Below are positions 10,064 through 38,519 of a stretch of DNA of 64,000 nt, piece by piece; the stretch's first letter is position 1, and the number at the start of each line of letters is the position of its first letter. This DNA is from Myxococcales bacterium (GTDB taxonomy: Bacteria; Myxococcota_A; Polyangia; Haliangiales; Haliangiaceae): assembly GCA_016707895.1 (NCBI GenBank), contig JADJGV010000002.1, positions 399,695-463,694 of the forward strand, written 5' to 3'. The position numbers and the translations under genes were made by a program. The notes under the pieces were generated by a model. It searched no databases, was not told the origin of the DNA, and saw only the letters and a program-made list of their open reading frames with translations.

Positions 10064-11218
10064 GTGTTCGAGCTGAGCCACGTCGAGCGCGTGATCAGGC
10101 ACCTCGTGCGGTTCGGGTCATCTCGCACCGACGCCGAGGACCTCGCGCAGGAGGCGTTGGTCATCGCGTGGCGCAAGCGCGACACGCACGACCGCGACCA
10201 CTCGCTCGACGCGTGGCTGTACGGCATCGCGCGCAACGTCTACCGCAACCACGCGCGCGGGCGGCGGCGGCGCGGCGACGTGGATCACGCGCTCGACTAT
10301 GACCTCGTCGGGGAGCCGGGTGAGGCCGCTGGCGCGCTCGCGGTGCAGGCGGCGCTGCGGGCGCTGCCCGAGCGCGACCAGGACCTGGTGATCCTGCACG
10401 AGCTCGAGGAGTACACGCTCAAAGAGGCCGCCGCGCTGCTCGAGATCCCGTTCGAGACCGCCAAGGACCGGCTGCGCCGCGCGCGGGCGCTGCTGCGCGA
10501 ACACCTCCAGGCAGACCTGGCGGTCGCGACCGCGAGCGAGCGCCGCACGACGGCGCGGCTCGCCAAGGCGGCGGCACCGGCCGTCCTCGTCGCGGTGATG
10601 GCCATGGTGCCCAACGCCGCGATGGCGGCGCCGGCAGGGGGTGGCGCGAGCGGCGGCGCGGTGTCGGCGACCGGGACCAAGCTCGTGCTCGCGGTCGTGC
10701 TGGCCGGTGGCGTCGCGATCGGCGTGGTCGTGGACCGGCTGGCCAAGTCGCCATCGCCGCCCGGGGCCGACCGGCCGGCGATCGTGGCCGCCGGGGGCCT
10801 CGCGCGGCCGGTCCCGCTCGACGCGGGGGCCGGATCGACCGCGGACGCGCGCCCGCGCCCCTCCGCCGACGCCCAGCCTGCGGCGACGATCGACGCGGGT
10901 GCCCGGCCGGCGGTCGACGACCTGCGCGCGCGCCCCGACGTCGACGCCGAGCCCCAGCTCATCGAGCGCGCCAGGCGCACGTTGCGGGGCGGGGGCGCTG
11001 CCGCCGCGCTCCGGGTGCTGATGGCGCACGAGCGCCGCTTCCCCGCGGGGCAGCTCGCCGAGGAGCGCGACATCCTGCTGGTCGAGGCCTACCTGGCGAT
11101 CGGCGACACACGCCTCGCCGGCGAGCGGCTGCGGCGCTATCGCGCCTCCTACCCGGCGGGGCTGCACCGGCAGCGCGCGGACGCGGCCGAGCGTCAACTC
11201 GCCGGGCCTTCGCCCTGA
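10064..11218 (+). CDS. ECF (sigma-70 family) sigma factor fused to a transmembrane / TPR-like C-terminal extension
   Basis: Sigma2 region (DAEDLAQEALVIAWRK) and sigma4 region (YTLKEAAALLEIPFETAKDRLRRARALL). Then a TM helix (LVLAVVLAGGVAIGVVV) and a ~170-aa extracytoplasmic tail. Confidence 0.7.
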   Translation: MFELSHVERVIRHLVRFGSSRTDAEDLAQEALVIAWRKRDTHDRDHSLDAWLYGIARNVYRNHARGRRRRGDVDHALDYDLVGEPGEAAGALAVQAALRALPERDQDLVILHELEEYTLKEAAALLEIPFETAKDRLRRARALLREHLQADLAVATASERRTTARLAKAAAPAVLVAVMAMVPNAAMAAPAGGGASGGAVSATGTKLVLAVVLAGGVAIGVVVDRLAKSPSPPGADRPAIVAAGGLARPVPLDAGAGSTADARPRPSADAQPAATIDAGARPAVDDLRARPDVDAEPQLIERARRTLRGGGAAAALRVLMAHERRFPAGQLAEERDILLVEAYLAIGDTRLAGERLRRYRASYPAGLHRQRADAAERQLAGPSP

Positions 11219-11271
11219 GCGCCCGTGGTGCTCGCCGCTCGCCCACGGTTGGCTCGACGACGACGCGCCGA

Positions 11272-12555
11272 TCACCAGCGCAGCGCGGGGGCGACGTCGG
11301 TGGCGCGGTGGCAGATCGGCGTGGCGATCGGCGTGCGCGTGATGCACAGGCGATCGCCGCGCGCGCTTGCGTCGCTGGCCAGGAACGCGAAGGTGCCGTC
11401 GGCGGTGCCGGCGGGGCTGCCGTCGGGCCAGGTGACCTGGGCGCCGGCGCGCGCGACCAGCCACGGGGTGGTGGCGGGGCCCGCGCCGGTCGCGCCGGCG
11501 GGGCCGAGGGGCGCGACGTCGCCCGGGGTCGTGCGCGCGCGCAGCTCGCCGCAACGATCGCCGGCCCACACGAGGTAGCCGCCATCGACCACGACCACGT
11601 CGTGGCGTGCGCGCGCGAGCTGGGCCGCCGCGAGCGCGGGCCGGCCGCCGATGGTCAGCGCCGCGCCGTCGTCGCGCAGCTGGCAGCGCTCCTCGGGGAC
11701 GCGTAGCAGGTCGGACGACGTCATGTCGACGACGGTGTAGTTGCTGGCGCTCAGCGGGCCGTCGCAGCTGGTCAGCGCGAGCGCGGCGAGGTCGGGTGCG
11801 GTGGCGCCGCGCTTGCCGCCCTTGCGCGTGGCGGCGGCGGCGGCCTGCGCGGCCTCGCAGCGGGCGCGCTCCTCGGCGGCGCGGGCGGCGGCGGTGGCCT
11901 CGGCGGCGGCGCGCTCGGCGGCCTCGCGGGCGGCCGCGTCGGGGTCGGGGCAGCGCGCGAGGCTGGCGTCGATCGGCGGCAGCGCGACGGGGGTCGGCGG
12001 CGGCGCGATCGCCAGCGCCAGCGCGTCGGCCGGCACGGTCGCGACCAGCCCGACGGGACCGGCGACCGCGGCGCGGCTGCCGTCGGAGAAGACGTGGACC
12101 GGCGCGCCGACCCGCAACAGCCAGCCGGTGCCGTCGACGTGGGCGTCGGACAGCGGGTGCGCGACCCGGGCCACCAGCGCGGCGCGCGGCACGTGCACGC
12201 GCAGGCGATAGCCGAGCGCGTGATCGGCGACGCAGTCGTCGGCGTCCGCCGCGGTCTCGAGCTCGACGGTGTCATCGTGGACCGCGATCAGCTCCGCCGA
12301 GACCAGCGCCGCGGTCGCGATCGGCGTCGGCGGGTGAGCCGCGGCGTCGGCCGCGGTGGCGTACAGCGGCGCGTCGGGTGGCACCGCGATCCGACCAGGG
12401 ACGGCCAGCGGCAGCGGCGGGGTCAGCGTCGACGCGGCGATCGCGACGGGTGGCGGCGGCGCGGCGTCGGCCATCGGCGGCGTCGGCGGGGGCGCGGCGG
12501 CGTGAGGCGTCGATCGCGTACACGCGACCAGCAAGACCAGCGCCGCGCTTCGCAT
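11272..12555 (-). CDS. Hypothetical lipoprotein (427 aa), Ala/Pro-rich
   Basis: MRSAALVLLVACT lipobox signal. Confidence 0.45.
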   Translation of the reverse strand: MRSAALVLLVACTRSTPHAAAPPPTPPMADAAPPPPVAIAASTLTPPLPLAVPGRIAVPPDAPLYATAADAAAHPPTPIATAALVSAELIAVHDDTVELETAADADDCVADHALGYRLRVHVPRAALVARVAHPLSDAHVDGTGWLLRVGAPVHVFSDGSRAAVAGPVGLVATVPADALALAIAPPPTPVALPPIDASLARCPDPDAAAREAAERAAAEATAAARAAEERARCEAAQAAAAATRKGGKRGATAPDLAALALTSCDGPLSASNYTVVDMTSSDLLRVPEERCQLRDDGAALTIGGRPALAAAQLARARHDVVVVDGGYLVWAGDRCGELRARTTPGDVAPLGPAGATGAGPATTPWLVARAGAQVTWPDGSPAGTADGTFAFLASDASARGDRLCITRTPIATPICHRATDVAPALRW

Positions 12556-16675: not shown

Positions 16676-19435
<2,760 letters not shown>

Positions 19436-19618: not shown

Positions 19619-20791
19619 ATGCCAGCTCGTCTCTTCGTCACTGCTTGTGCGATCGCCAGTGCGCTCGCGGCCACCACCGTCTCGATCCGCGTCGCAGGGG
19701 CCGGGTGCAACGCCTACCGCTGCGGCGGCAACACGCCGATCCTCTGGGGGACCTTCATCCGCGGGCTCAGCACCACCGGCGAGGCCAACGCCGAGCGGGT
19801 CGTGCTGCGGCCGGAGTTGATCCCGTCGGGCACCGGCACCTGCGCCGGCACCGACATCAAGCTCGCCTCGGTCGACGGGCGCCTGCAAGGCGTCCGCGAC
19901 GGCGTCGAGGTGTGCGCCGACGCGGCGCTGGTCGGGTCGGCGTTCGATCTGGACGTGCCGTACAAGGCGCTGACGATGCGGGTGCGGGTGCTCATCTCCG
20001 AGATCAGGACGGTGTCGACCTGGGAGGTCGAGGGCGCGACCGTGCTGCCGACCTACCGCTTCGAGGTGGTGGCCAACGGCGCGATCGCCGCGCCGGGCGA
20101 GCCGCCGCCCGACGGCGCGCGGCCGTTCGGGCCGGTCACGCCGTCGCCGCTATGCCAGGAGACCGAGCGGTGGATGGAGCGGTGGCAGAACGACGGCCTG
20201 GTGCCGGTGCTGGAGACGCCGTCCGGTGGCCTGATCCGCTGGGACAATCCCCCGGGCACCGTCGGCCAGCAGTGGCAGCAGGGCACCGACCACGCGCTGA
20301 TCGTCAGCGGCGAGACGTACACCGAGACCGGCTCGTCGGCGGCGATCGGGCAGCAGTGGTTCCAGATCGCGTGCGCCGGCTCGGCGATCGCCAAGATGCG
20401 GCTGCTCGGGATCGATCCGTGGGAGCCGCGCGCGGTCGCTGGCGGGCTCACCACCGCCACGCTCAAGATGATGGGCGCGCGCTACGGCGGCGACGTCGCG
20501 TTCACGCGGCCGGGCACGCCGGTGCGCTGGGAGCGCTGGGACGCGCGGCGATTCTACGGCGGGCCGGCGCGCGAGTTTGCGCCCGGGCCGTCGGAGGCGA
20601 CGTGGACCCGCAGCGGCGCGGCGTGCGTCGATCACCTGCGGCTGATGCGGGCGAGCCTCGGCAGCCGCTGGCTCACGTGGGTCGAGGGCATCGCGCTGGT
20701 GTCGCTGGCGCGCGAGTACCGGCTGCGCCCGTGCCCCCGCACCGCCAGCGCAGTGTGGACGACCACGACGGTCGATCACGTCGCGCACTGA
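19619..20791 (+). CDS. Hypothetical secreted protein (390 aa)
   Basis: ATG at 19619 with signal peptide MPARLFVTACAIASALAATTVSIRVAGAGC. Confidence 0.45.
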   Translation: MPARLFVTACAIASALAATTVSIRVAGAGCNAYRCGGNTPILWGTFIRGLSTTGEANAERVVLRPELIPSGTGTCAGTDIKLASVDGRLQGVRDGVEVCADAALVGSAFDLDVPYKALTMRVRVLISEIRTVSTWEVEGATVLPTYRFEVVANGAIAAPGEPPPDGARPFGPVTPSPLCQETERWMERWQNDGLVPVLETPSGGLIRWDNPPGTVGQQWQQGTDHALIVSGETYTETGSSAAIGQQWFQIACAGSAIAKMRLLGIDPWEPRAVAGGLTTATLKMMGARYGGDVAFTRPGTPVRWERWDARRFYGGPAREFAPGPSEATWTRSGAACVDHLRLMRASLGSRWLTWVEGIALVSLAREYRLRPCPRTASAVWTTTTVDHVAH

Positions 20792-20875
20792 GTCCCAACA
20801 GGGCGTGTCGCAACGCGGTCCCCCGTCGGGTCATGCCCCGCCGGGGAACCTCCCAAGATCCGCGGCTGCGAAGCC

Positions 20876-21640
20876 TCAGGCCAGCGGCCCCGGCCGCTCC
20901 CACAGGCTCGGTGCCGGGCCGCCGCGCTTCCAGCCGCCCTGCATGAGCCAGGTCTGTGGCGCCGCGGTCGGCATCGGCTCGAAGTCCTTGGGCCACGCGA
21001 ACGGCACGCCGTCGCGCTCGGCCCAGCCGGCGAAGGCGACGCCGCTGGCGTAGCGATCGAGCGGCGCGCGGCGCTGCCCGACGCCGGCGTGATCCTCGCG
21101 GTGGCGGCGCCAGTTGTTGAGCACGTAGGCCAGCGCGTGGCGGGCCTGGCGCGGCTTGCTGAGCGTCGTCGCGTGGTAGCGGTCGGTGAAGACGCGGCCG
21201 GCTCGCGGCACTCCGCCAGCGATGGTGACCGCGCGGTTCAGCCGCTTCGCGGCTGAGACGCACAGCGCGCGGACGCCGTTGGCCAGCGCGCGGCGGTCGT
21301 CGGCCTCGCAGAGCAGGTGGATGTGGTGGCGCTGGATCGACAGGTGGACGACGCGGAAGTCGGCGCGCCCGACCAGCGCGATCATCGCCGCGCGGACGGC
21401 CGCGTACGCCTGCGGCCGGCGCAGGCGGCCGACCTGCCGGGTGACGCGCAGGACGACGTGGACAGGCAGGCGGCGATCGTGGAACGGCCGCGCCCGGTGC
21501 TTGCCGCGGGCCGGGCCGGGCAGCGTCCGCTTGCGCCCGGCGCCGGCGCGCTTGCCGCCGTGACCGTTCGCGTTGCCCGCGCGCCGCGGCGCGCCCTCGG
21601 TCCTCGCCAACCCCAGCTGCCTCGACATCCTCGCCCTCAT
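20876..21640 (-). CDS. IS200/IS605-family Y1 (HUH) transposase-like protein (RAYT-like)
   Basis: N-terminal GGKRAGAGRKRT motif. HuH motif RHHIHLL. Catalytic Tyr context TDRYHATTL. Matches the IS200-like transposase fold (PF01797-like). Confidence 0.65.
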   Translation of the reverse strand: MRARMSRQLGLARTEGAPRRAGNANGHGGKRAGAGRKRTLPGPARGKHRARPFHDRRLPVHVVLRVTRQVGRLRRPQAYAAVRAAMIALVGRADFRVVHLSIQRHHIHLLCEADDRRALANGVRALCVSAAKRLNRAVTIAGGVPRAGRVFTDRYHATTLSKPRQARHALAYVLNNWRRHREDHAGVGQRRAPLDRYASGVAFAGWAERDGVPFAWPKDFEPMPTAAPQTWLMQGGWKRGGPAPSLWERPGPLA

Positions 21641-21923
21641 GATTGGGCCAATATAGGCACTGGGCGCGAGACGTCAAGGCGCGAGGAAGATTCAGTGAGG
21701 GGGTACAGACTGATCTGATCCCTGACAGCTCGTCCCCGGGACCCTGACAGGCGAGTGCGGCGAGTGCCTGCGAGCGCGGATCGGGAGGCGAGGACCGCCC
21801 GGAGCGCTGTCGCCTTGGAGATGCCGACCGTTGCTCGTCCGAAGGCCTCACAGACTCTGAGCGCACACCCACCGGCGCTGCGTTGACGGCGATGACCGCC
21901 GGCGCTACAGATGCCGAGCCACG

Positions 21924-22610
21924 ATGACGCCGCCGACACCAGCGACGCCCGCGCGGCGGCCGACCGGGCACGGCGGCTGGCGGCCGGGCGCAGGGCGGAA
22001 GAAGCGGCCGGGGTCGGATCCGCACCTCCCGCGCGCGCGGTTCGCGGCGGCGACGCCGGTGTACGTCACGGTGAAGCTGGCCGAGGACGCGCCGACGCTG
22101 CGCACCGCGGCGGTCGCGCGGGCGGTGTGGGCCGCGATCGAGGCCGGGCACCGCGACGACTTCCGCGTCGTGCACTACGGCGTGCTCGGCGATCAGCTGC
22201 GCTTCGTCGTCGAGGCGGCCGGGACGCAGGCGCTCTCGCGTGGGATGCAGGGGCTGACCATCCGGCTCGCGCGACGCATCAACGCGCAGCTGGGACGCCG
22301 CGGCAAGCTGTTCGCGCAGCGCTACCAGGCGCGGCCGCTGCGCACGGCGGCGGAGGTGCGCGACGCGATCCGCGACGTCTTGCTCGGCGCGCGGGGCGCC
22401 GGCGCGCGGCTCAAACTCGGCGCGATCGATCCGCACTCGAGCGGGCTGTGGTTCGACGGCTGGAAGGCCGCGGCCCGCACCGACGTCGCGTGGCTGCGCG
22501 CCCTGGCCAAGGCCGGTCGCCCGACGGCGGCGCCGCGCACGGCGCTGCTCGCGCGCGGCTGGCACACCGCGGGCGGGCCGCTCGACGTCGACGACGCGTC
22601 GCGGTCGTGA
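21924..22610 (+). CDS. Paralog of the IS200-like Y1 transposase lacking the HuH histidines
   Basis: Same architecture (GGWRPGAGRKKRP ... FRVVHYG ... AQRYQARPL), but the HIH motif is replaced by LRF. Divergently oriented to 20876..21640. Confidence 0.55.
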   Translation: MTPPTPATPARRPTGHGGWRPGAGRKKRPGSDPHLPRARFAAATPVYVTVKLAEDAPTLRTAAVARAVWAAIEAGHRDDFRVVHYGVLGDQLRFVVEAAGTQALSRGMQGLTIRLARRINAQLGRRGKLFAQRYQARPLRTAAEVRDAIRDVLLGARGAGARLKLGAIDPHSSGLWFDGWKAAARTDVAWLRALAKAGRPTAAPRTALLARGWHTAGGPLDVDDASRS

Positions 22611-22614
22611 TCGC

Positions 22615-24168
22615 CTACGGCGCGGCGGGGTAGATGATCCGCGCGCGCACCGCGGTCATGTCGCGATCGGGATCGGTGGCGCTGCCGTCGCTCCAGGTGA
22701 CCGCGACCGAGCGATCGGGGAGCCAGCCGAGCGACGGGTCTTCCTGATCGCCGGGCGTGGTGGAGTTGACCAGCTGCGCGTCGCCGACGGGGGCGAGGTC
22801 GCCGTCGTAGCGGCGGAAGCGGACGCCGCAGCCGGCGCCGTCGCTGCCCTCGTTGCAGGCCGACCAGGCGACGCCGACGTCGGTGCCGTCGATGGCGAGG
22901 GCGGCGGGGCCGGACTCCGAGTCGTTGGTGACGATCACCGCGGCGCCGACGCCGGCGCCGGCGGCGGTGTAGCGGCGCAGGATCAGCTCGCCGTGATCGG
23001 CCGCGCCGCTGATGGTCTGGTGGCGGTAGAGCATGACCAGGTCGTTGCCGAGGCGGGCCAGCTGCGGCGGGCCGAGGTTGTCGCCGGGGTGGCTGGCGGC
23101 CAGCAGGTCGACCGGGCTCAGCGCCGCGCCGGTGGTGCCGTACAGCCGGCCGCGGATGTCGCTGCCGACCCGCCACGCGAACGCCAGCGCCGAGCCGTTG
23201 CCGAGCGTCACGACCGCGGGCGCCTCGTCGTCGGTGCGCACCGTCGTCGACACCACGAACGGGTCGGGGGTGTTGGTGATCGGGTTGTTGATCGGCTGGC
23301 CGGTGGCCGACAGGAAGCGCGCCTTGACCACGGTCTGGCCGACCATCGTGCCGGTGTCGGTCCAGGCCACGACGAAGCGGCCGTCGGGGAACACCGCGAC
23401 CGCCGGCGTGCCCGGCGAGGTCGCCGTCGTCACCTGGGTCTCGATCGGCGTGACGTGGTTGCCGGCGGCGTCGATCACCACCGCGAACAGATCGCCGAAG
23501 GTGGTCCACGCCGCCAGCGTGGTGCCGTTGCGATCGGTCACCATGGACGGCTCGTAGCCGGTCTCGCCGTCGGTCTGGTTGATGTTGAACTGCCCGGTGC
23601 CGGCGGCGATGCCGGTGGTCACCGCGGTGCCGGTGGCGTCGTAGCGCCGGCCGAATACGTCGCAGCGCCCCACCATCTGGCAGGTATCCGACCAGCCGAT
23701 CGTGAACACGCCGTCGGCGCCGATCGCGAGCTGGCGGCCGCCGCCGTCGAGGCGGAACGCCAGGTCCTGGCTGCCGACGTAGGTGGTGTTGACGACGAAG
23801 TCGTTGGGCTCGAGCAAGAGGTCGGCGTCGACGCGGCTGTCGGCGATCGGCACCACCAGCTGGCCGACGCCGCGGGCCAGGCCGCCGCCGTCCTTGGCCA
23901 CCACGTCGATCGTCAGGTCGCCGGTGCGGCCCGGGGTCTGGACGCTGAACGACATCGGGAACGACCGCCCCGACACCGCGAACGCCTCGCTCTGCGTCGA
24001 GCTGTCGTTGGCCAGCACCACCGCGAGCTCGGTGACGTTGGTGACCGCCGGCCGCGCCTGGAGGTGCACGACGATCACCGGCTCGTCGCTGCCGCACGCG
24101 CCCAGCAGCGCCCCGGCCACGACGGCGGCGGGGCCCCAGAGCCAGGGGGACGGACGAGGCGAGCGCAC
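22615..24168 (-). CDS. Hypothetical lipoprotein with beta-propeller-like repeats
   Basis: GTG at 24168 gives VRSPRPSPWLWGPAAVVAGALLGAC (lipobox). Recurring VAWTD/AAWTT/FAWRV/VTWSD blade-like motifs. The upstream part of the annotated ORF is Arg-rich junk. Confidence 0.5.
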   Translation of the reverse strand: MRSPRPSPWLWGPAAVVAGALLGACGSDEPVIVVHLQARPAVTNVTELAVVLANDSSTQSEAFAVSGRSFPMSFSVQTPGRTGDLTIDVVAKDGGGLARGVGQLVVPIADSRVDADLLLEPNDFVVNTTYVGSQDLAFRLDGGGRQLAIGADGVFTIGWSDTCQMVGRCDVFGRRYDATGTAVTTGIAAGTGQFNINQTDGETGYEPSMVTDRNGTTLAAWTTFGDLFAVVIDAAGNHVTPIETQVTTATSPGTPAVAVFPDGRFVVAWTDTGTMVGQTVVKARFLSATGQPINNPITNTPDPFVVSTTVRTDDEAPAVVTLGNGSALAFAWRVGSDIRGRLYGTTGAALSPVDLLAASHPGDNLGPPQLARLGNDLVMLYRHQTISGAADHGELILRRYTAAGAGVGAAVIVTNDSESGPAALAIDGTDVGVAWSACNEGSDGAGCGVRFRRYDGDLAPVGDAQLVNSTTPGDQEDPSLGWLPDRSVAVTWSDGSATDPDRDMTAVRARIIYPAAP

Positions 24169-24233
24169 GATAACCAGGCGAGCTAGGAGACGGGGTACCG
24201 CATGGACCAGAGAGTAGCCTCGCTGTCGCTCGG

Positions 24234-24802
24234 CTAGTCGAAGACGACGTTGCCGAGATCGGTCGACGGGAGGCCGTCGTCGCGCAGGAGGAAGTAGCCC
24301 CCTGCGCCAGCGCCGGCGACGGCGGCGATGCCGCCCCAGAACCACCAGCGAGTGTAGATCGGTTTGTCGCCGCCGCGCGCCGCGCGCTGGCGGGCCAGCT
24401 CGCGCTCGCGCTCGCGGTCCAGGTCGGCCTGCCGCTGCCGCTCGCGCTCCTCGGCCTCGGCCTGGCGCCCCTCGAGGTCGTCGATCAGCTTCTCGACCGC
24501 CTCGCGGTTGTCGGCGTCGGGCACCTCGCGCAGGTACTTGCGGAAGGCGAAGATGGCCTGGTCGTAGTGGTCGAGGTTGCGGTGGGCCTGGCCGATGTTG
24601 AACAAGAGCTTGGGCAGCGGCTTGGCCTCGTAGGCGGCCTCGAACTCGACCAGCGCCTGATCGAACTTGCCCAGCGCGAACAGCTTGTCGCCCTTGGCGT
24701 AGTGCTTCTTGGCGTCGCGGGTGGCGGTGTCCTCGGCGCGCGCGCCGCCGACCCCGAGCACCAGCGCGATCAGGGCGCACACCCCGACGGCGACCCGTCG
24801 GC

Positions 24803-24806
<4 letters not shown>
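24234..24806 (-). CDS. TPR-repeat protein with signal peptide and C-terminal TM helix (190 aa)
   Basis: MSRRVAVGVCALIALVLGVGGARA signal. TPR repeat (YAKGDKLFALGKFDQALVEFEAAYE...). ATGA overlap with the upstream kinase stop. Confidence 0.6.
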
Positions 24807-26764
<1,958 letters not shown>

Positions 26765-26865
26765 GAAAGGTCGGGTGCGACGGGCACACCCGGACCACCT
26801 TGTATTCTACGGTCGCCTACGGACGGGGGCAACGGCTATCGCCGCCTGGCGGTAGGGGCGGGGGG

Positions 26866-27210
26866 CCTTGTCAGGCTTTCGGACAAGCACCGGTCGGCGC
26901 GCGGGGAGTCTCGCGTCGCGGGGGAAGGGCTCGATCCCGGCTTTGCCCGACGTCCCCGACGAGCCCTCGAGGTTCACGCGGCGCGGTGAGCCACCTGCCT
27001 CCACCTGGGCTCGGCGACGAGCCCCCTGGAACCCAGAGCCTGTCAGCGTTTCGGTCGAGCACCGGTCGGCGCGCGGGGAGTCTCGCGTCGCGGGGGGAGG
27101 CTCGATCCCGGCTTTGCCCGACGTCCCCGACGAGCCTTCGAGGTTCACGCGGCGCGGTGAGCCACCTGCCTCCACCTGGGCTCGGCGACGAGCCCCCTGG
27201 AACTCAGCGC
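26866..27210. repeat. Tandem direct duplication of a ~172-bp intergenic element (2 copies, ~95% identical)
   Basis: Copy A is about 26866..27038 and copy B about 27039..27210. Both begin CCTGTCAG(G)C(G)TTTCGG...GCACCGGTCGGCGCGCGGGGAGTCTCGCGTCGCGGGG and end ...CGACGAGCCCCCTGGAAC. The element lies between the kinase start (26764) and the 3' end of the next gene (27204). Confidence 0.8.
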
Positions 27211-27785
27211 CCGCCGGTCAGGCACAGCGGGTCGATGCGGTCCAGCGCGGTCTGCAGGGCGGCCTTGACCTGGGGGTTGGTCTCCCGGGTGTTCTGGACC
27301 CGCAGCGGCGAGCAGGCCGCCGGCGAGGAGGTCGCGGCCAGCGCCAGCGCCGCCGCCGCGCGCACGTCGCGGAGCTCGCTGGTGAGGTTGGCCGCCAGCG
27401 CCGGCACGGCGTCGGTCCCGCCGTTCTCGCCGAGCCCCTCGATCGCCGCCATGAGGTAGATGCGCTCGAGGCGATCGTCGCTGTCGCGGAACGCCACCAC
27501 CGCCGAGGTCAGCGCGGCCCGGGCGATGTTGTCGGGGAACTGGCCGAGCGCGCGGTAGGCCCGGGCGCGCATGCCGACGGTCACCGCGGGGTCGCTCGAG
27601 TTGACCACGACCAGGAGCTGCGACAGGTCGCCGGCCAGGGCCTGCTCGAGCGCGGCGCGGCTGGGCAGGTAGTCGAACCCCGAGAGGATCTGCTCGAGCC
27701 GGGTGCGCGCCAGGACGTTGCCGTCGGCGGCGGGCGCCGTGGCGAGCAGCGCCGTCAGCGCCAGGAGCGCGCGTTCGAGCCTCAT
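27204..27785 (-). CDS. Secreted HEAT/PBS-lyase-like repeat protein (193 aa)
   Basis: ATG at 27785 with signal peptide MRLERALLALTALLATAPAADG. HEAT-like repeats. ATGA overlap with the upstream gene's stop. Confidence 0.55.
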   Translation of the reverse strand: MRLERALLALTALLATAPAADGNVLARTRLEQILSGFDYLPSRAALEQALAGDLSQLLVVVNSSDPAVTVGMRARAYRALGQFPDNIARAALTSAVVAFRDSDDRLERIYLMAAIEGLGENGGTDAVPALAANLTSELRDVRAAAALALAATSSPAACSPLRVQNTRETNPQVKAALQTALDRIDPLCLTGGR

Positions 27786-29344
27786 CGCAGCACCGGGCTC
27801 GCGCGCAGGATCTCGCGCTGTTCGGTCGACAGCGAGGTGCCGCCGTCCTCGCCCCAGTACATGAGGTTGTCGTCGGAGGTCGGGCTGTCGATCAGCGGAT
27901 CGTCGGCGCCCTCGGGCTCGGGCTCGCGGTTGCGGTACAGGCCCAGGTGCCGCGCGATGGCGTGGGCGGTGGTGCGCGCCAGCCGATCCCAGGCCGGTTC
28001 GTCGCGGCGGGCCGGGTCGGTGTTGTTGCACAGCGCGGTCGCGGCGATCGCGACGCCCGAGGCGCCGGTCCGCGGCAGCGGCGCGCCGGGCGTGCCACCG
28101 ACGACGGCCTCGAGCCCGGCCGGCATGATCGTGCGGACGAAGAACACCGAGACCCCGCGATCGTCGTCGGCGGTCGCGAACAGCTCGCCGGCGCGCTCGC
28201 TGGCCAGCCCCTCGAGCTCGACCGGCGCGGCGGTCGCCTCGTAGGTCACGGTGCCGATCGCGATGTTGGCGGCGGCGAAGATGTCGCGCAGGCGCTGCAG
28301 GAACACCGTCTGGAACTGCGGATCGACCGGCGCCGTGGTCGGGCTCAGCGCCGGGACGTTGGGCAGGCACGGGTGATCGGTCAGGTCGGCGAAGTGGAAG
28401 TGCAGGTCGAGGGTGGCGCCCGGGCCGAGCTTCTCGACGATCCGCACCCGTCGGCCCTCGAGCGTCACCCCCGGGCGATCGGACGAGCTGGTGATCGTCA
28501 TCGTGTACACGCCGGCCTGGAGCGCCACCGCCGACGTCGACGGGATCTGCAGCACCGCGACGCCGGGCAGCGGCTTGTGGCGCAGCGCGCCGGCGAAGTA
28601 CTCGGCGATCGTGGTGGGCGCGGTGAAGATCGACGCGTTCTCGGGATCGGTGACCGCGGTGACGCCGATGCGCTCGTCGGCCTGCGCCGCCTCGGCGACC
28701 AGCACCAGCGACGTCGCGTTGTTGACCACCGGGATGATCAGCGGCTGGCTGACCTGGGGCCGCAGCGGCACCTCGAACGTGAGCGTGGCGCGGGTGGGCA
28801 GGCAGCCGTAGTAACCGCCGAGGAACGAGCTGGCGTCCGACGACACCCGGGGGATGCCGACGCACTGGAAGCCGCGCAGGCACTCGCTGTCGACCTCGCA
28901 CAGCTCGGTGCACCGCCCCAGCGCGCAGGCCCCGACGCGACAGTCGGTGTCGATCTGGCAGGTCGAGCCGACCACGCCACCGGCGGTGGCCTCGCGCTGG
29001 CAGGTCCCGTCGCCGGCGACGAACGCGTCGATCGGCAGCCGGCACGATTGGCCGGGGCCGCAGTCCGCCTCGCCATTGCAGCTGTCGCCCACCTCGGTCT
29101 CGACCAGCCGGCAGGTGTGGGAATCACACACCCGGCCATCGCCGCAGTCGACGTTGGCCAGGCAGCCGGGCCGACAGATGTGATCCAGGCACTGTAGGCC
29201 GCTGGCGCAATCGGCTACCGTCGCGCAGCTCTCGCCGACGTCGGCCCCGCCGCCGCCGCAGCCGAGCGCCCCGATGGCCATGACGACCCCAGCGATCCAC
29301 CGAGGCGGACCTGCGGGCGGCCGGTTGGATGCGGATCGGGCCAT
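27782..29344 (-). CDS. Secreted lipoprotein with N-terminal EGF-like Cys-rich repeats and large C-terminal domain (520 aa)
   Basis: MARSASNRPPAGPPRWIAGVVMAIGALGC lipobox. Repeats of the form CxxxxDCxxGxxCxxxxC. Confidence 0.55.
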   Translation of the reverse strand: MARSASNRPPAGPPRWIAGVVMAIGALGCGGGGADVGESCATVADCASGLQCLDHICRPGCLANVDCGDGRVCDSHTCRLVETEVGDSCNGEADCGPGQSCRLPIDAFVAGDGTCQREATAGGVVGSTCQIDTDCRVGACALGRCTELCEVDSECLRGFQCVGIPRVSSDASSFLGGYYGCLPTRATLTFEVPLRPQVSQPLIIPVVNNATSLVLVAEAAQADERIGVTAVTDPENASIFTAPTTIAEYFAGALRHKPLPGVAVLQIPSTSAVALQAGVYTMTITSSSDRPGVTLEGRRVRIVEKLGPGATLDLHFHFADLTDHPCLPNVPALSPTTAPVDPQFQTVFLQRLRDIFAAANIAIGTVTYEATAAPVELEGLASERAGELFATADDDRGVSVFFVRTIMPAGLEAVVGGTPGAPLPRTGASGVAIAATALCNNTDPARRDEPAWDRLARTTAHAIARHLGLYRNREPEPEGADDPLIDSPTSDDNLMYWGEDGGTSLSTEQREILRASPVLR

Positions 29345-37400: not shown

Positions 37401-38519
37401 GCTCGCGGGCGAGGGCGGCGCGACGCGCGCGGCCGGCGGGTTGGTGGCAGGGCCCGGGAGATCGTCGAAGAAGCCCTTGGGCGCGGGGAGATCGACGCCG
37501 CCCTTGCCGGTGGCGGGGCCCGGGAGATCGTCGAAGAAGCCCTTGGGCGCGGGCAGGTCGGGGCCCTTCGGCGTCGCGGGGCCTGGGAGATCGTCGAAGA
37601 AGCCCTTGGGCGCGGGGAGATCGACGCCGCCCTTGCCGGTGGCGGGGCCCGGGAGATCGTCGAAGAAGCCCTTGGGCGCGGGCAGCTGCGCGTTGTTCGC
37701 CAGCGGGCGCGCCGGCGGGATCGTCGGCGGCATGCCACCGACGGTGCGCTTGGGCTCGGGCGGCGGCGCGGCCGCTGGCCGCTTGGGCGTGGGCAGGTCG
37801 CCGATCATCGGCCCCTTGGGCGCCGGCAGGTCGTCGAACAGGTCGTTGCCGCTGGCGCGCTTGGGCGCGGGCAGGTCGCTGATCGCCGGCGGCCCCTTGG
37901 GCATCGGCAGGTCGCTGATCGCCGGCGGCCCCTTGGGCATCGGCAGGTCGCTGATCGCCGGCGGCCCCTTGGGCGCGGGCAGATCGACGATGCCGGCGGG
38001 CGGCCCCTTGGGCGCGGGCAGATCGACGATGCCTGCCGGCGGCCCCTTGGGCGCGGGCAGGTCGACGATGCCTGCCGGCGGCCCCTTGGGCGCGGGCAGG
38101 TCGGTGTACGGGCCGCGCGCGGTGGCCTTGGGGGCGTCGGCCGGCGCGGGCGCGCCGCGCGGCGAGGGGCCGACCGGCGCGACGAGGTCGACGCCGTCGA
38201 GCGTGAACGGCTCGGGCTCGCGCGGCTTGGGCACCGCCTTGGGCGCCGGCAGATCGACGATCGCCGACGGCGACGGGCCCTTGGGCGCAGGCAGATCGAC
38301 CGCCTCGACGCGCCCACCGGGCACGCCCGTGGGGGACGGGCGTCGCGGCGCGGGCAGATCGGCCAGGTCGATGACGTCGCCCGTGCCACCGGCGACGTCG
38401 CCCGGGACCACGATGCGCGCCTTGCACTTCGCACACGACACCGTCTTGCCCGCCGGCGGAATGTCAGCCGCGGGGAAGCGGTACATCGCGCCGCACACGG
38501 CGCATGCCACTTCCTTCAT
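34449..38519 (-). CDS. Giant (1356 aa) zinc-ribbon / Pro-rich repeat / TM / TPR-repeat protein
   Basis: N-terminal CxxC...CxxC zinc ribbon (MJ0042-like, MKEVACAVCGAMYRF...SCAKCKA). Tandem DLPAPKGPPAGIV and DLPAPKGFFDDLPGPATGKGGV repeats. A TM helix, then about 800 aa of TPR repeats. Confidence 0.75.
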   Translation of the reverse strand: MKEVACAVCGAMYRFPAADIPPAGKTVSCAKCKARIVVPGDVAGGTGDVIDLADLPAPRRPSPTGVPGGRVEAVDLPAPKGPSPSAIVDLPAPKAVPKPREPEPFTLDGVDLVAPVGPSPRGAPAPADAPKATARGPYTDLPAPKGPPAGIVDLPAPKGPPAGIVDLPAPKGPPAGIVDLPAPKGPPAISDLPMPKGPPAISDLPMPKGPPAISDLPAPKRASGNDLFDDLPAPKGPMIGDLPTPKRPAAAPPPEPKRTVGGMPPTIPPARPLANNAQLPAPKGFFDDLPGPATGKGGVDLPAPKGFFDDLPGPATPKGPDLPAPKGFFDDLPGPATGKGGVDLPAPKGFFDDLPGPATNPPAARVAPPSPASMFDDLPPAKSPAPAIGLFDDLPPPSVPRAERFPAPAPSVAPGAALEGIDLPPPSGGSGMIELEPTNASARSVPATPRTHAPSEPPPALELGDGDPLGLDLPASPAAAAAAGRGVVSFKAGASTSPGSDSRAPATNTGDIDLAVPRRDAPAQPKVRATPKAGPAKAKLSPRAAKLVLAAVLGVGAVGAGGFFMYKRWDAQQTRAADLDRNLKAARKAALANDETHWRRAARAADDVLALDKRNAEALGIAAQAALVAYVEEGTQAEARLANGRRLLETATTNGAHHPTVDKAAAVRDLIEGDYTGAIAALKPLAARGDADAQLYLGWAQAGAQEWAAAQQAFTAALTARPVAATYGLAQAQQAGGDVAAAHASYLKVIELAPEHVGALVGEVLTAPNSDLGKRETSLLAILQRAGIDKADPRAVVLAWTRAGDEARRGGRLDAARDRYRKALAILPGDRGVLVSLAATELADGKIDAAAEAADKALALAPDDVDAALTAAEIDLRRAKIPEAAARLAALRERKPPITAPALLGRLDMIDGHRLEAEKNPAAALAAYERAATALGAGDIAPTIAAATLLGHMADAAKTPEDAAALRARADAKLTTIAAAATSDAGIAIALGVAYLSAGAAPQAERWLRSAIEQRPTEVEAHYQLAEALRRQGKQDEAVATLVKAFELDPSRIDLGVELARGFEAARRDADAAELYRKLLRLPDVTVETKIRAGRFFARTGDIAAARALGDELLAVTPDDPTGLFLKGEGLLLDKRYSEARRVMQEATSRSPDAQFLEGLGRVSEKFSGQTGDTAVRDEALRAYDQAALLDESIVNAWAGAGRIRLARGEYDKAITAFKKALEKDPGNADLPYGLGMAYVELEDRANAVTWLTKAVAAQPRADAYYKLGELYYEGDRAGPAASALERATTLATTDERKDGVTVPWLTDALWLLGTVQQVMHNDGATIRAWEAYLARNPKNQAQAEEVRRYLTARGR
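37250..38110. repeat. In-frame tandem repeats (39-bp and 66-bp units) inside the zinc-ribbon/TPR gene
   Basis: GGCCCCTTGGGCGCGGGCAGATCGACGATGCC... units are reiterated at least 6 times. GGGCCCGGGAGATCGTCGAAGAAGCCCTTGGGCGCGGG... units occur 4 times. Confidence 0.7.

Follow-up and report, generated by a model that had tools for sequence, protein, structure and literature searches.

A Y1 HUH transposase homologue on a polymorphic insertion beside a catalytically inactivated paralogue in a Myxococcales genome

Introduction

The class 2 RAYT-like Y1 transposases are generally seen as single-copy, domesticated genes that are immobile as a unit, and the origin of repetitive extragenic palindromic (REP)-like repeats from ancestors resembling the insertion sequence (IS) IS200 is still debated. 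Here, we describe two paralogous genes of this kind in a 64,000-nucleotide stretch of a Myxococcales bacterium (GenBank assembly GCA_016707895.1, contig JADJGV010000002.1, positions 399,695 to 463,694 of the forward strand; referred to as the window). Gene A (20876–21640, minus strand; an open reading frame, ORF, of 254 amino acids) and gene B (21924–22610, plus strand; an ORF of 228 amino acids) stand head to head across a 283-bp spacer (21641–21923). Gene A lies on a 1,069-bp insertion, the A unit, which is present in some lineages and absent from others and shares its termini with short hairpin elements, and gene B has lost its catalytic residues. The reading that we favour as a whole, with a confidence somewhat above even, is that of a mobile RAYT/TIRYT-like Y1 cassette which was inserted beside a dead resident paralogue.

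Among the closest described systems, the IS200/IS605 TnpA proteins (IS608, ISDra2 and IS200, with the palindrome-associated transposable elements, PATEs) share the Y1 HUH fold with both A and B, and share with A the HuH motif, a tyrosine on helix αD and a polar ligand at the fourth residue after this tyrosine (Y+4). The spacing from HuH to the tyrosine is 58–67 residues in most subclasses, and the residue at Y+4 (Q131 in IS608, N119 in RAYT) serves as the third metal ligand (PMC6006769). A fixed short 5' target, asymmetric ends without terminal inverted repeats (TIRs) and tandem stacking are common to IS200/IS605 elements, the A unit and the hairpin elements, a strong hairpin near the right end, about 10 nt from the tip, is likewise part of this common pattern, and IS200 elements, too, carry tnpA only. 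However, IS200 encodes a core of about 150 residues with Y-x3-Q, whereas A has 254 residues with N- and C-terminal extensions and Y-x3-N (YVLNN). The copies of IS200 within a genome are about 99% identical (Table 1 of PMC6006769), in contrast to the 78–97% protein identity in the A family. Of the IS200 geometry, the A unit shows (GCG)CTCAG as its target and a hairpin at the right end; a left-end hairpin is unsupported, and the pair of CTCAG sequences may be a target-site duplication (TSD). Most A-family copies moreover differ from IS200/IS605 in being bounded by TIRs with a 10-bp TSD.

The RAYT (TnpA-REP) proteins have class 2-like motifs in common with the A family, namely N/H-H-u-H, Y-x3-N and a downstream 'SS'; the best structural match of B is the E. 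coli RAYT 4ER8, and hairpin repeats adjoin gene A. On the other hand, RAYT genes occur in one or two copies per genome, compared with about 20 A-type copies in the nearest relative of the window. REPtrons have been reported not to move as a unit (PMC6006769), whereas gene A sits on a polymorphic insertion. REPs are 20–40 nt long and present in hundreds of copies, in contrast to the three-hairpin elements of 123–171 nt, of which three are found in 64 kb (one window), and the GTAG or CGTC tag of REPs is found in none of the hairpin elements. The TIRYT proteins of the TIRtrons (Di Nocera 2013, PMC3733652; subclass 2.1) are long class 2 Y1 proteins of about 240 residues which are common in δ-proteobacteria, like the A family, and the canonical A elements of the nearest relative are similarly bounded by 25-bp TIRs, although the window copy has none. 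The C-terminal helix–turn–helix (HTH) domain of subclass 2.1 (Bac_DnaA_C, HTH_23 or HTH_28-like) is not detected in A, and the GGGGWSAS motif of TIRtrons is not in the A-family TIR. Subclass 2.3 (Quentin et al. 2018, PMC6006769) is multicopy with moderate intragenomic identity, as is the A family, and in its motifs, its length of about 240 residues and its δ-proteobacterial bias the A family appears to resemble class 2 of these authors overall. Sequences of TnpA-Y1 that lack the motifs were set aside by them as probably non-functional (PMC6006769). B resembles the 'inactivated derivatives' of COG1943 ('transposase and inactivated derivatives') in missing the HuH and Tyr motifs, but differs from them in that its losses are specific to the active site, its scaffold and promoter are conserved and it is syntenic in four lineages.

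Results

Gene A lies on a polymorphic 1,069-bp insertion

The nearest relative of the window is the metagenome-assembled genome (MAG) GCA_016794525.1, 'Myxococcales bacterium new MAG-81', which is referred to below as the sister genome. Its orthologous locus (L001) contains, in order, a kinase gene, an ADYC-domain gene, B and a gene for a 501-residue protein, and A is absent. By blastn, the window and L001 form three colinear blocks (16670–20792/3793–7915, 21857–26866/7911–12943 and 27184–30000/12941–15754, in window/L001 coordinates; the nucleotide identity is 85.5% in the left flank and 94.8% in the right flank), and this comparison and a five-way alignment of filled and empty sites delimit the A unit to 20788–21856 on the minus strand. 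The unit is present in the window and in L067, where B is identical to that of the window and the contig ends inside the same insert, and is missing from L001, L068 and L069. The latter two loci are thus empty sites as well, in which a sequence ending in GCGCACTGAG is joined straight to CGCAC...TTGACGG, and in all three empty sites the ADYC stop codon adjoins the promoter of B at the junction CACTGAG/CGCAC.

The target octamer GCGCTCAG (21857–21864, minus strand) lies directly 5' of the left end of the unit and pre-exists in the empty sites. At the opposite end, the terminal CTCAG of the unit (20788–20792, minus strand; CTGAG on the plus strand) overlaps the TGA stop codon (20789–20791) of the upstream ADYC-domain gene, and since this stop codon falls in the repeated pentamer, the ADYC reading frame is intact after the insertion. 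The octamer is scarce, with three occurrences in 64 kb against 10.2 ± 3.5 expected; one of the three is the occupied site, and a scan of the window placed the others at 11215–11222 and 11747–11754. By parsimony, the insertion is a gain in the lineage of the window, and the alternative of a precise excision in the other lineages would make the unit mobile likewise. The insertion point is 21 bp upstream of the −35 hexamer of B, and A stands next to B because the rare target octamer happens to sit between the ADYC stop codon and the B promoter. The pairing of A and B is accordingly not conserved; it arises from a transposon insertion and not from a built-in two-gene system. At the nucleotide level, the A unit resembles the sister-genome copies only from about 55 nt 5' of the ATG to about 15 nt past the stop codon. 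A first-pass annotation of the window had noted that no IS ends were evident, which holds for this sequence read alone, whereas the relatives provide exact junctions and recognizable termini.

The termini of the A unit are shared with short hairpin elements

The outer 34 nt of the unit upstream of A (left end, AGTCTGTGAGGCCTTCGGACGAGCAACGGTCGGC, 21823–21856, minus strand) match the starts of two tandem hairpin elements of about 171 nt, located at 26867–27036 and 27037–27207 on the plus strand (blastn to 26869–26898 and 27034–27070; 23 invariant columns in an alignment of eight sequences). The second copy begins directly after the CCCAG end of the first, and the elements at 26867–27207 are missing from L001, where only a solo right end (GACGAGCCCCCTGGAACTCAG) is found. 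They have the marks of miniature derivatives (miniature inverted-repeat transposable elements, MITEs, or PATEs), as they possess the termini of the A unit, contain no ORF and show insertion polymorphism. They correspond to the '172-bp element' for which the first-pass annotation had proposed a check for TnpA-type subterminal hairpins, and the element indeed has the termini of the A unit and right-end hairpins.

The right end of the A unit consists of a strong imperfect hairpin with a GCATGA loop (...CGGCGGGGCATGACCCGNCGGGG..., 20817–20850, minus strand), which is unique in the window and folds as single-stranded DNA (ssDNA) with z-scores of −2.1 for the minus strand and −2.7 for the plus strand, followed by the tail GCGTTGCGACACGCCCTGTTGGGACTCAG (20788–20816, minus strand), in which a degenerate last hairpin precedes an invariant ...ACTCAG (alignment of 12 sequences). 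This hairpin is the hairpin 2 module of the short elements and also occurs in L144, L163 and L187. No convincing hairpin was found at the left end of the A unit (z +1.3); among the short elements, only the first window copy and L163 fold at this end.

When metagenomes were scanned with the left-end pattern, 119 stretches matched; eight of these, in six distinct contexts, are real elements, and the others matched by chance in GC-rich DNA. The scan yielded six further independent elements of 123–175 nt (L072, L073, L125/L106, L144, L163 and L187), and the alignments give the left-end consensus GT..G...TTCGG.C.AGCA.CGGTCGGC; exact-pattern counts in the comparison loci were uninformative because the element copies vary. 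The hairpin elements always lie 3' of CTCAG, with the complete GCGCTCAG directly before them in four independent contexts (the A unit, L072, L125 and L163), and their right end is a hairpin followed by ...ACTCAG. No terminal inverted repeats were seen in them by inspection. As ssDNA, the short elements form two adjacent perfect stems of 9–12 bp (z −3.5 to −3.8), the last of which stops 10 nt from the tip. New elements stack head to tail right after the CTCAG of older right ends (the second window copy and L187), right ends of this type are also found downstream of A genes in L016, L020 and L021, and the hairpin repeats occur intergenically, just past stop codons. An abundance of the REP kind was not seen in the 64-kb window, which contains the A-unit copy and the two tandem elements only. 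Two candidates were dropped: a pairing of CTCAG with a guide sequence 5' of the foot of the right-end hairpin, for which the match is weak (three to four of five), and L020 as a second hairpin-ended cassette, in which the right end is convincing and the left end is not.

A-type genes form a multicopy family in related genomes

A-type loci were found by a scan of species-representative genomes. In the sister genome there are 19 (20 copies, many of them truncated at contig ends, whose proteins are 78–97% identical to A), and three to six copies each are present in several other MAGs of the Myxococcota; the family as a whole amounts to 2,241 clusters at 50% identity (E ≤ 1e-30). All of the complete copies examined (n = 13, 12 from the sister genome and that of the window) are intact, with the HxH motif and the tyrosine. 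Pairwise ratios of nonsynonymous to synonymous divergence (dN/dS) among the A copies have a median of 0.26, and no two complete copies are closer than a dS of 0.115; together with their intactness, these values indicate purifying selection and a multicopy, long-lived family rather than a recent burst. The first-pass annotation had suggested domesticated or REP-associated paralogues; the association with hairpin repeats is borne out for A, but A is mobile and multicopy, as its presence on a discrete, present-or-absent 1,069-bp unit with defined ends and its membership in this multicopy family mark it as mobile DNA and not as a domesticated single-copy RAYT. The same annotation had raised the possibility of an active/inactive regulatory pair, which is contradicted by the lack of conserved adjacency: B stands without A in L001, L068 and L069, and no B-type neighbour of A was found at the 19 sister-genome loci searched for both proteins (about 1–3 kb of flank each). 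None of these A loci is syntenic with the window, and hence no further empty sites were derived from them.

The canonical A copies carry a 194-nt two-hairpin module, which is usually preceded by a second, inverted copy. Several canonical elements are bounded by 25-bp TIRs (CTGATCATTCATCACAYCTCCACGG), as in L022 (2261–3843) and in L015, L016, L018, L019, L027 and L039. The TIRs of L022 (25 nt) show 88% complementarity, and the 1,583-bp element that they bound is nested in a hairpin element of reversed orientation, where 10 bp (CCCCCGCGAC) are duplicated. A Y1 transposase gene flanked by TIRs and a TSD departs from the IS200/IS605 pattern and is similar in this to the 'TIRtrons' (PMC3733652). 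The 194-nt module and the 25-bp TIR were both looked for in the window and neither is present, and an inverted-repeat search found no TIRs around L002, an active B-type homologue.

A spacer of about 120 bp separates the inverted modules of about 194 nt 5' of the canonical A genes (L016 467–586, L018 2548–2662, L017 2542–2659, L021 153–256 and others). Relative to the gene, its orientation is plus in L016, L018, L028 and L007 and minus in L017, L019, L021, L022, L023 and L027, and the occurrence of both orientations suggests an invertible or recombining segment. In L016 (1–1747), two A-type genes stand head to head with two inverted modules between them, and the left promoter is fused to codon 32 by a 5' deletion; divergent arrangements thus recur in the family for structural reasons. 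In all family copies examined, including L002 and L003, a promoter of the form TTGACG-N16/17-TATAtT ends about 10 nt before the ATG with no Shine–Dalgarno sequence, which implies leaderless or nearly leaderless mRNAs throughout the family.

The product of gene A retains a complete active site

Both genes had been assigned in the first-pass annotation to an IS200/IS605 TnpA (RAYT-like) fold, and this homology is upheld by sequence and by the predicted folds. A matches Pfam Y1_Tnp (PF01797), the profile proposed for this check, with 30.3 bits (cutoff 23; profile positions 5–120 of 121), whereas B gives no hit. A scores 24.4 bits against the NCBIfam RAYT model NF047646 and 15.9 bits against the IS200 model NF033573, below the respective cutoffs of 80 and 55. 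With these scores, its length of 254 residues and its class 2-like Y-x3-N, the earlier statement that the pair is not a canonical IS200 was correct; accordingly, although flanking ends, which had been named as a sign of ordinary IS200 copies, do exist as the defined ends of the A unit, A is not an ordinary IS200.

From the motif table, the alignment and the model, the active site of A is complete, with H106-I-H108 (RHHIHLL), Y172 and N176. The nucleophile position, Y172, lies on helix αD in the context ALAYVLNN, 64 residues past HuH, and N176 occupies Y+4, the third-metal-ligand position. The AlphaFold2 (AF2) model of A (mean predicted local distance difference test, pLDDT, 76.5, with the core above 90) has the order β1-αA-β2-β3-αC-β4-αD, in which H106 and H108 are on β3, Y155 is on β4 and Y172 is on αD. 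This placement corrects one point of the first-pass annotation, which had described a catalytic-tyrosine context common to both proteins: the motif in question (DRYHA/QRYQA) is strand β4 (residues 155–158 of A), the 'W-motif' strand, and the residue of B that corresponds to the nucleophile Y172 is an aspartate. In a Foldseek search with the model of A, the top 30 PDB matches are TnpA of ISDra2, IS200 and IS608 and the E. coli RAYT 4ER8, with a probability of 1.0. Single-sequence searches of the PDB gave matches at noise level only, and a family profile of 30 sequences was required to reach ISDra2 TnpA (E 0.008), in which N-H-L-H of the family is aligned with D-H-V-H.

A further has the N-terminal basic motif GHGGKRAGAGRK and a C-terminal extension. 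In the AF2 model, the last 70 residues form mainly coil and include two short helices; no C-terminal HTH or DnaA_C-like domain was detected in A, for which Y1_Tnp is the sole Pfam match at E ≤ 1. Upstream of A, a scan found a σ70-like promoter, TTGACG-16-TATATT (21650–21677, minus strand; one found against 0.0 expected), which is kept in all family copies. It ends 9 nt before the ATG, so that the mRNA of A would be nearly leaderless. Judged from its sequence, A is an intact, expressed-looking Y1 HUH transposase homologue of a multicopy subfamily that is distinct from that of B.

Gene B encodes a catalytically inactivated paralogue

A and B are paralogues with 33% identity over 221 columns (E 1e-21), and the N-terminal basic motif that the first-pass annotation had recognized in both is present in the form GHGG-x-R-x-GAGRK, which is conserved throughout the family. 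That only A keeps HuH, as had also been pointed out, is equally clear from RHHIHLL in A and DQLRFVV in B. The degeneration of B in fact extends beyond this claim: HuH is replaced by Q-L-R, the tyrosine by D151 (AIRDVLLG) and the Y+4 asparagine by G155, and three more family-conserved histidines are missing. B matches neither Pfam Y1_Tnp nor NCBIfam NF047646 and NF033573. Among 234 aligned homologues, the combination of Q-L-R, Asp and Gly is found only in B and its three nearest relatives (P0121–P0123, at least 91% identical), and every B-type homologue of 68% identity or less keeps H-L-H and RYVLLN.

The rest of the protein has been preserved to a considerable extent. Of 48 columns with at least 90% conservation in the family, 38 are unchanged in B; the changes affect all four columns designated a priori as catalytic (H, H, Y and the Y+4 N), compared with six of the 44 others (hypergeometric P of about 1e-3, calculated by hand). 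The AF2 model of B (pLDDT 85.8) has the topology of A, and its best PDB match is the RAYT 4ER8 (TM-score 0.60), followed by ISDra2 and IS200. Between the window and L001, dN/dS of B is 0.43 (19 nonsynonymous and 17 synonymous changes), the highest of the seven genes compared (0.04–0.29 for the six neighbours) and below neutral expectation (binomial P of 0.013 for fewer nonsynonymous changes), and there is an in-frame indel of four codons. The ORF is open in four lineages. A promoter-like element, TTGACG-17-TACAGA (21883–21911, plus strand), is nearly invariant in the four B-clade lineages and homologous to the family promoter by comparison with L002 and L003, and its score in the consensus scan is under the cutoff. 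B is no longer flanked by IS ends.

Dead variants are recurrent, with about 3–5% of the family clusters lacking a histidine of HuH or the tyrosine. Further clusters with a substituted HuH histidine or tyrosine (for example QQ/F or RH..AG) are P0042, P0043, P0049, P0193, P0219, P0256, P0266, P0304, P0364 and P0374. As far as can be judged from these residues, catalytic inactivation has happened repeatedly in the family. The pattern in B seems to go beyond simple decay; B has the appearance of an inactivated derivative that has been retained, more than of a pseudogene in decay, and it is probably kept for some putative non-catalytic role, for which the binding of ssDNA or hairpins would be a candidate. 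The appropriate label for B in annotation is 'inactivated derivative' and not 'transposase'.

The spacer and other features of the window

The window has a G+C content of about 75% and is myxobacterial in character, and proteins closely related to those of the window carry the database label Kofleriaceae. Coordinates, composition and repeat counts agree with the first-pass description of two head-to-head ORFs across a 283-bp, AT-richer spacer with a duplicated motif: the GC fraction of the spacer is 0.655–0.69 against 0.73–0.82 in the flanks, and the two copies of CCCTGACAG (21720–21728 and 21742–21750, plus strand; CTGTCAGGG on the minus strand) are the only ones in 64 kb, where about 0.7 occurrences are expected from composition. 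The motif is noteworthy only because the two copies are 22 bp apart and resemble, by eye, the CTGTCAG motif at the left-end tips of the hairpin elements, and any function of it would be conjectural. Where A and B form inverted repeats with each other in the window, these reflect only their homologous coding sequence in opposite orientation. A search of Rfam (E ≤ 1) with 20000–28000 gave no match, and neither PHROGs nor PADLOC matched A, B or the genes next to them. The locus is surrounded by several genes for Ser/Thr protein kinases (16697–19435, 24806–26764 and elsewhere), as is typical for myxobacteria. Long tandem repeat arrays at 51448–53778, 37782–38272 and 61636–62536, with units of 141 bp (seven copies), 186 bp (six copies), 36–39 bp and about 249 bp (four copies), are probably within coding regions and are unrelated to the locus.

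Discussion

In the reading favoured here, B would be a resident, catalytically dead representative of the Y1 HUH homologues of about 230–260 residues, a very large family in myxobacteria which may be placed between IS200 TnpA and the RAYT/TIRYT proteins, and the 1,069-bp unit with A and its promoter would have been inserted 3' of GCGCTCAG in the lineage of the window. The A unit may be regarded as a hairpin miniature element carrying an A cassette, consisting of promoter and gene. The fixed target, the asymmetric ends, the subterminal hairpin, the head-to-tail stacking and the intact Y1 enzyme aboard point to an IS200/IS605- or REP-like single-strand transposition as the most likely route, in which a Y1 enzyme would recognize the subterminal hairpins and cut after CTCAG; an A-type protein would be the obvious candidate for this enzyme, and the unit would have moved in one step. 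The head-to-head layout would then be a by-product of the choice of target site and not a functional module.

Several observations weigh against this reading. The left end has no convincing conserved hairpin, so that the IS200/IS605 geometry is demonstrated only at the right end, and a second copy of the exact composite unit was not found, L020 being merely suggestive. The typical A elements of the sister genome are built differently, with 25-bp TIRs, a 10-bp target duplication and inverted 194-nt modules, and since the window copy has none of these, the A protein may act on ends of either kind; the unit of the window may represent a canonical element that became trapped, in truncated form, within a miniature element. 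The CTCAG at both junctions could equally well be a 5-bp target duplication left by a site-specific transposase whose gene lies elsewhere, and the evidence from the source genome comes from a single 64-kb window. With respect to B, the estimate of constraint rests on only 36 substitutions, a high-GC ORF may remain open by chance, and B need not have gained a function, since dead family members arise repeatedly (3–5% of clusters).

Two alternative explanations concern the unit. It may have formed in two steps, by insertion of a miniature element at GCGCTCAG and then of a TIR-bounded A element into it, followed by deletion of the TIRs and modules, in which case the composite never moved as a unit. 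Canonical A elements do enter miniature elements (L022 with its 10-bp duplication, and L019, L016 and L018), and the cassette edges keep canonical vestiges, ACAGCGCTCCGGG upstream and CTGAGGC.TCGC downstream. However, this history requires at least four events (two insertions and two deletions) within a dS of about 0.1–0.2, the miniature element alone is found in none of the empty-site lineages, and the cassette has the orientation of the element, whereas it is reversed in L019 and L022; we therefore consider it rather unlikely. Less probable still, in our estimation, is that an unrelated transposase encoded elsewhere, with a strict CTCAG target and a 5-bp duplication, moves both the elements and the unit, with A as a passenger. 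In formal terms, the flanking CTCAG sequences make up a 5-bp direct repeat, the hairpin at the left end is weak, and the canonical A elements have TIRs and a TSD, as is typical of DDE transposition; yet the hairpin elements have no terminal inverted repeats, solo right ends serve as insertion sites and the elements stack head to tail as expected of the IS200/IS605 or REP type, and such right ends are enriched directly 3' of A genes (L016, L020, L021 and the window).

For the two genes as a pair, it might be supposed that B regulates A, as a repressor acting on the same hairpins or the shared spacer, or that the two form a heteromer of an active and a structural subunit. The head-to-head arrangement over a common 283-bp promoter region, the basic motif of the DNA-binding type and the fold kept in B, and the existence of one more head-to-head family pair (L016) would agree with this. 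The idea nevertheless appears very improbable in view of the three related lineages with B and no A and the 19 sister-genome A loci without a B-type gene in the flanks examined; moreover, A and B at 33% identity belong to separate subfamilies, which makes a common DNA specificity unlikely, and the pair in L016 consists of two A-type genes, one of which is truncated. It may also be that B is the decaying pseudogene of an old insertion and functionless now, as every catalytic residue is gone, its dN/dS of 0.43 is the top of seven genes, an in-frame 4-codon indel separates the window from L001, dead variants recur in the family and no IS ends are left around it. The retention of 38 of 48 invariant columns with losses concentrated on active-site residues, the ORF intact in four lineages with a nearly invariant promoter, a dN/dS below 1 (P 0.013) and a confidently predicted model (pLDDT 85.8) argue against decay, which we accordingly regard as a minority prospect. 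We therefore retain the reading of a mobile Y1 cassette inserted beside a dead resident paralogue.

Conclusion

In conclusion, the genes themselves were already known by annotation, in that many family members are named 'transposase' or 'RayT' in databases, and the new components are a mobile unit with defined ends, the CTCAG hairpin elements and a dead paralogue that has been conserved. A class 2-like Y1 gene is found here on a demonstrable insertion with exact junctions and with termini common to fixed-target hairpin elements, and it belongs to a family with tens of diverged yet selected copies per genome. For genome annotation, the 'pair' is an artefact of insertion. The locus offers a concrete system with defined ends (right-end tip TGGAACTCAG), a CTCAG site of proposed cleavage and an intact enzyme beside a natural catalytic-null paralogue, which may be used for asking how Y1 enzymes mobilize hairpin repeats and whether dead copies are reused. 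It is conceivable, if speculative, that the long-form class 2 family is not domesticated but a still-proliferating autonomous transposon system of the Myxococcota with its own CTCAG hairpin elements, and that dead copies of the family, B among them, have repeatedly been exapted by the host as hairpin-binding proteins. If so, the family would be a living intermediate between the IS200 and REP/RAYT systems, and its exapted dead copies might act, for example, as repressors of the family or use the hairpin elements as regulatory sites.

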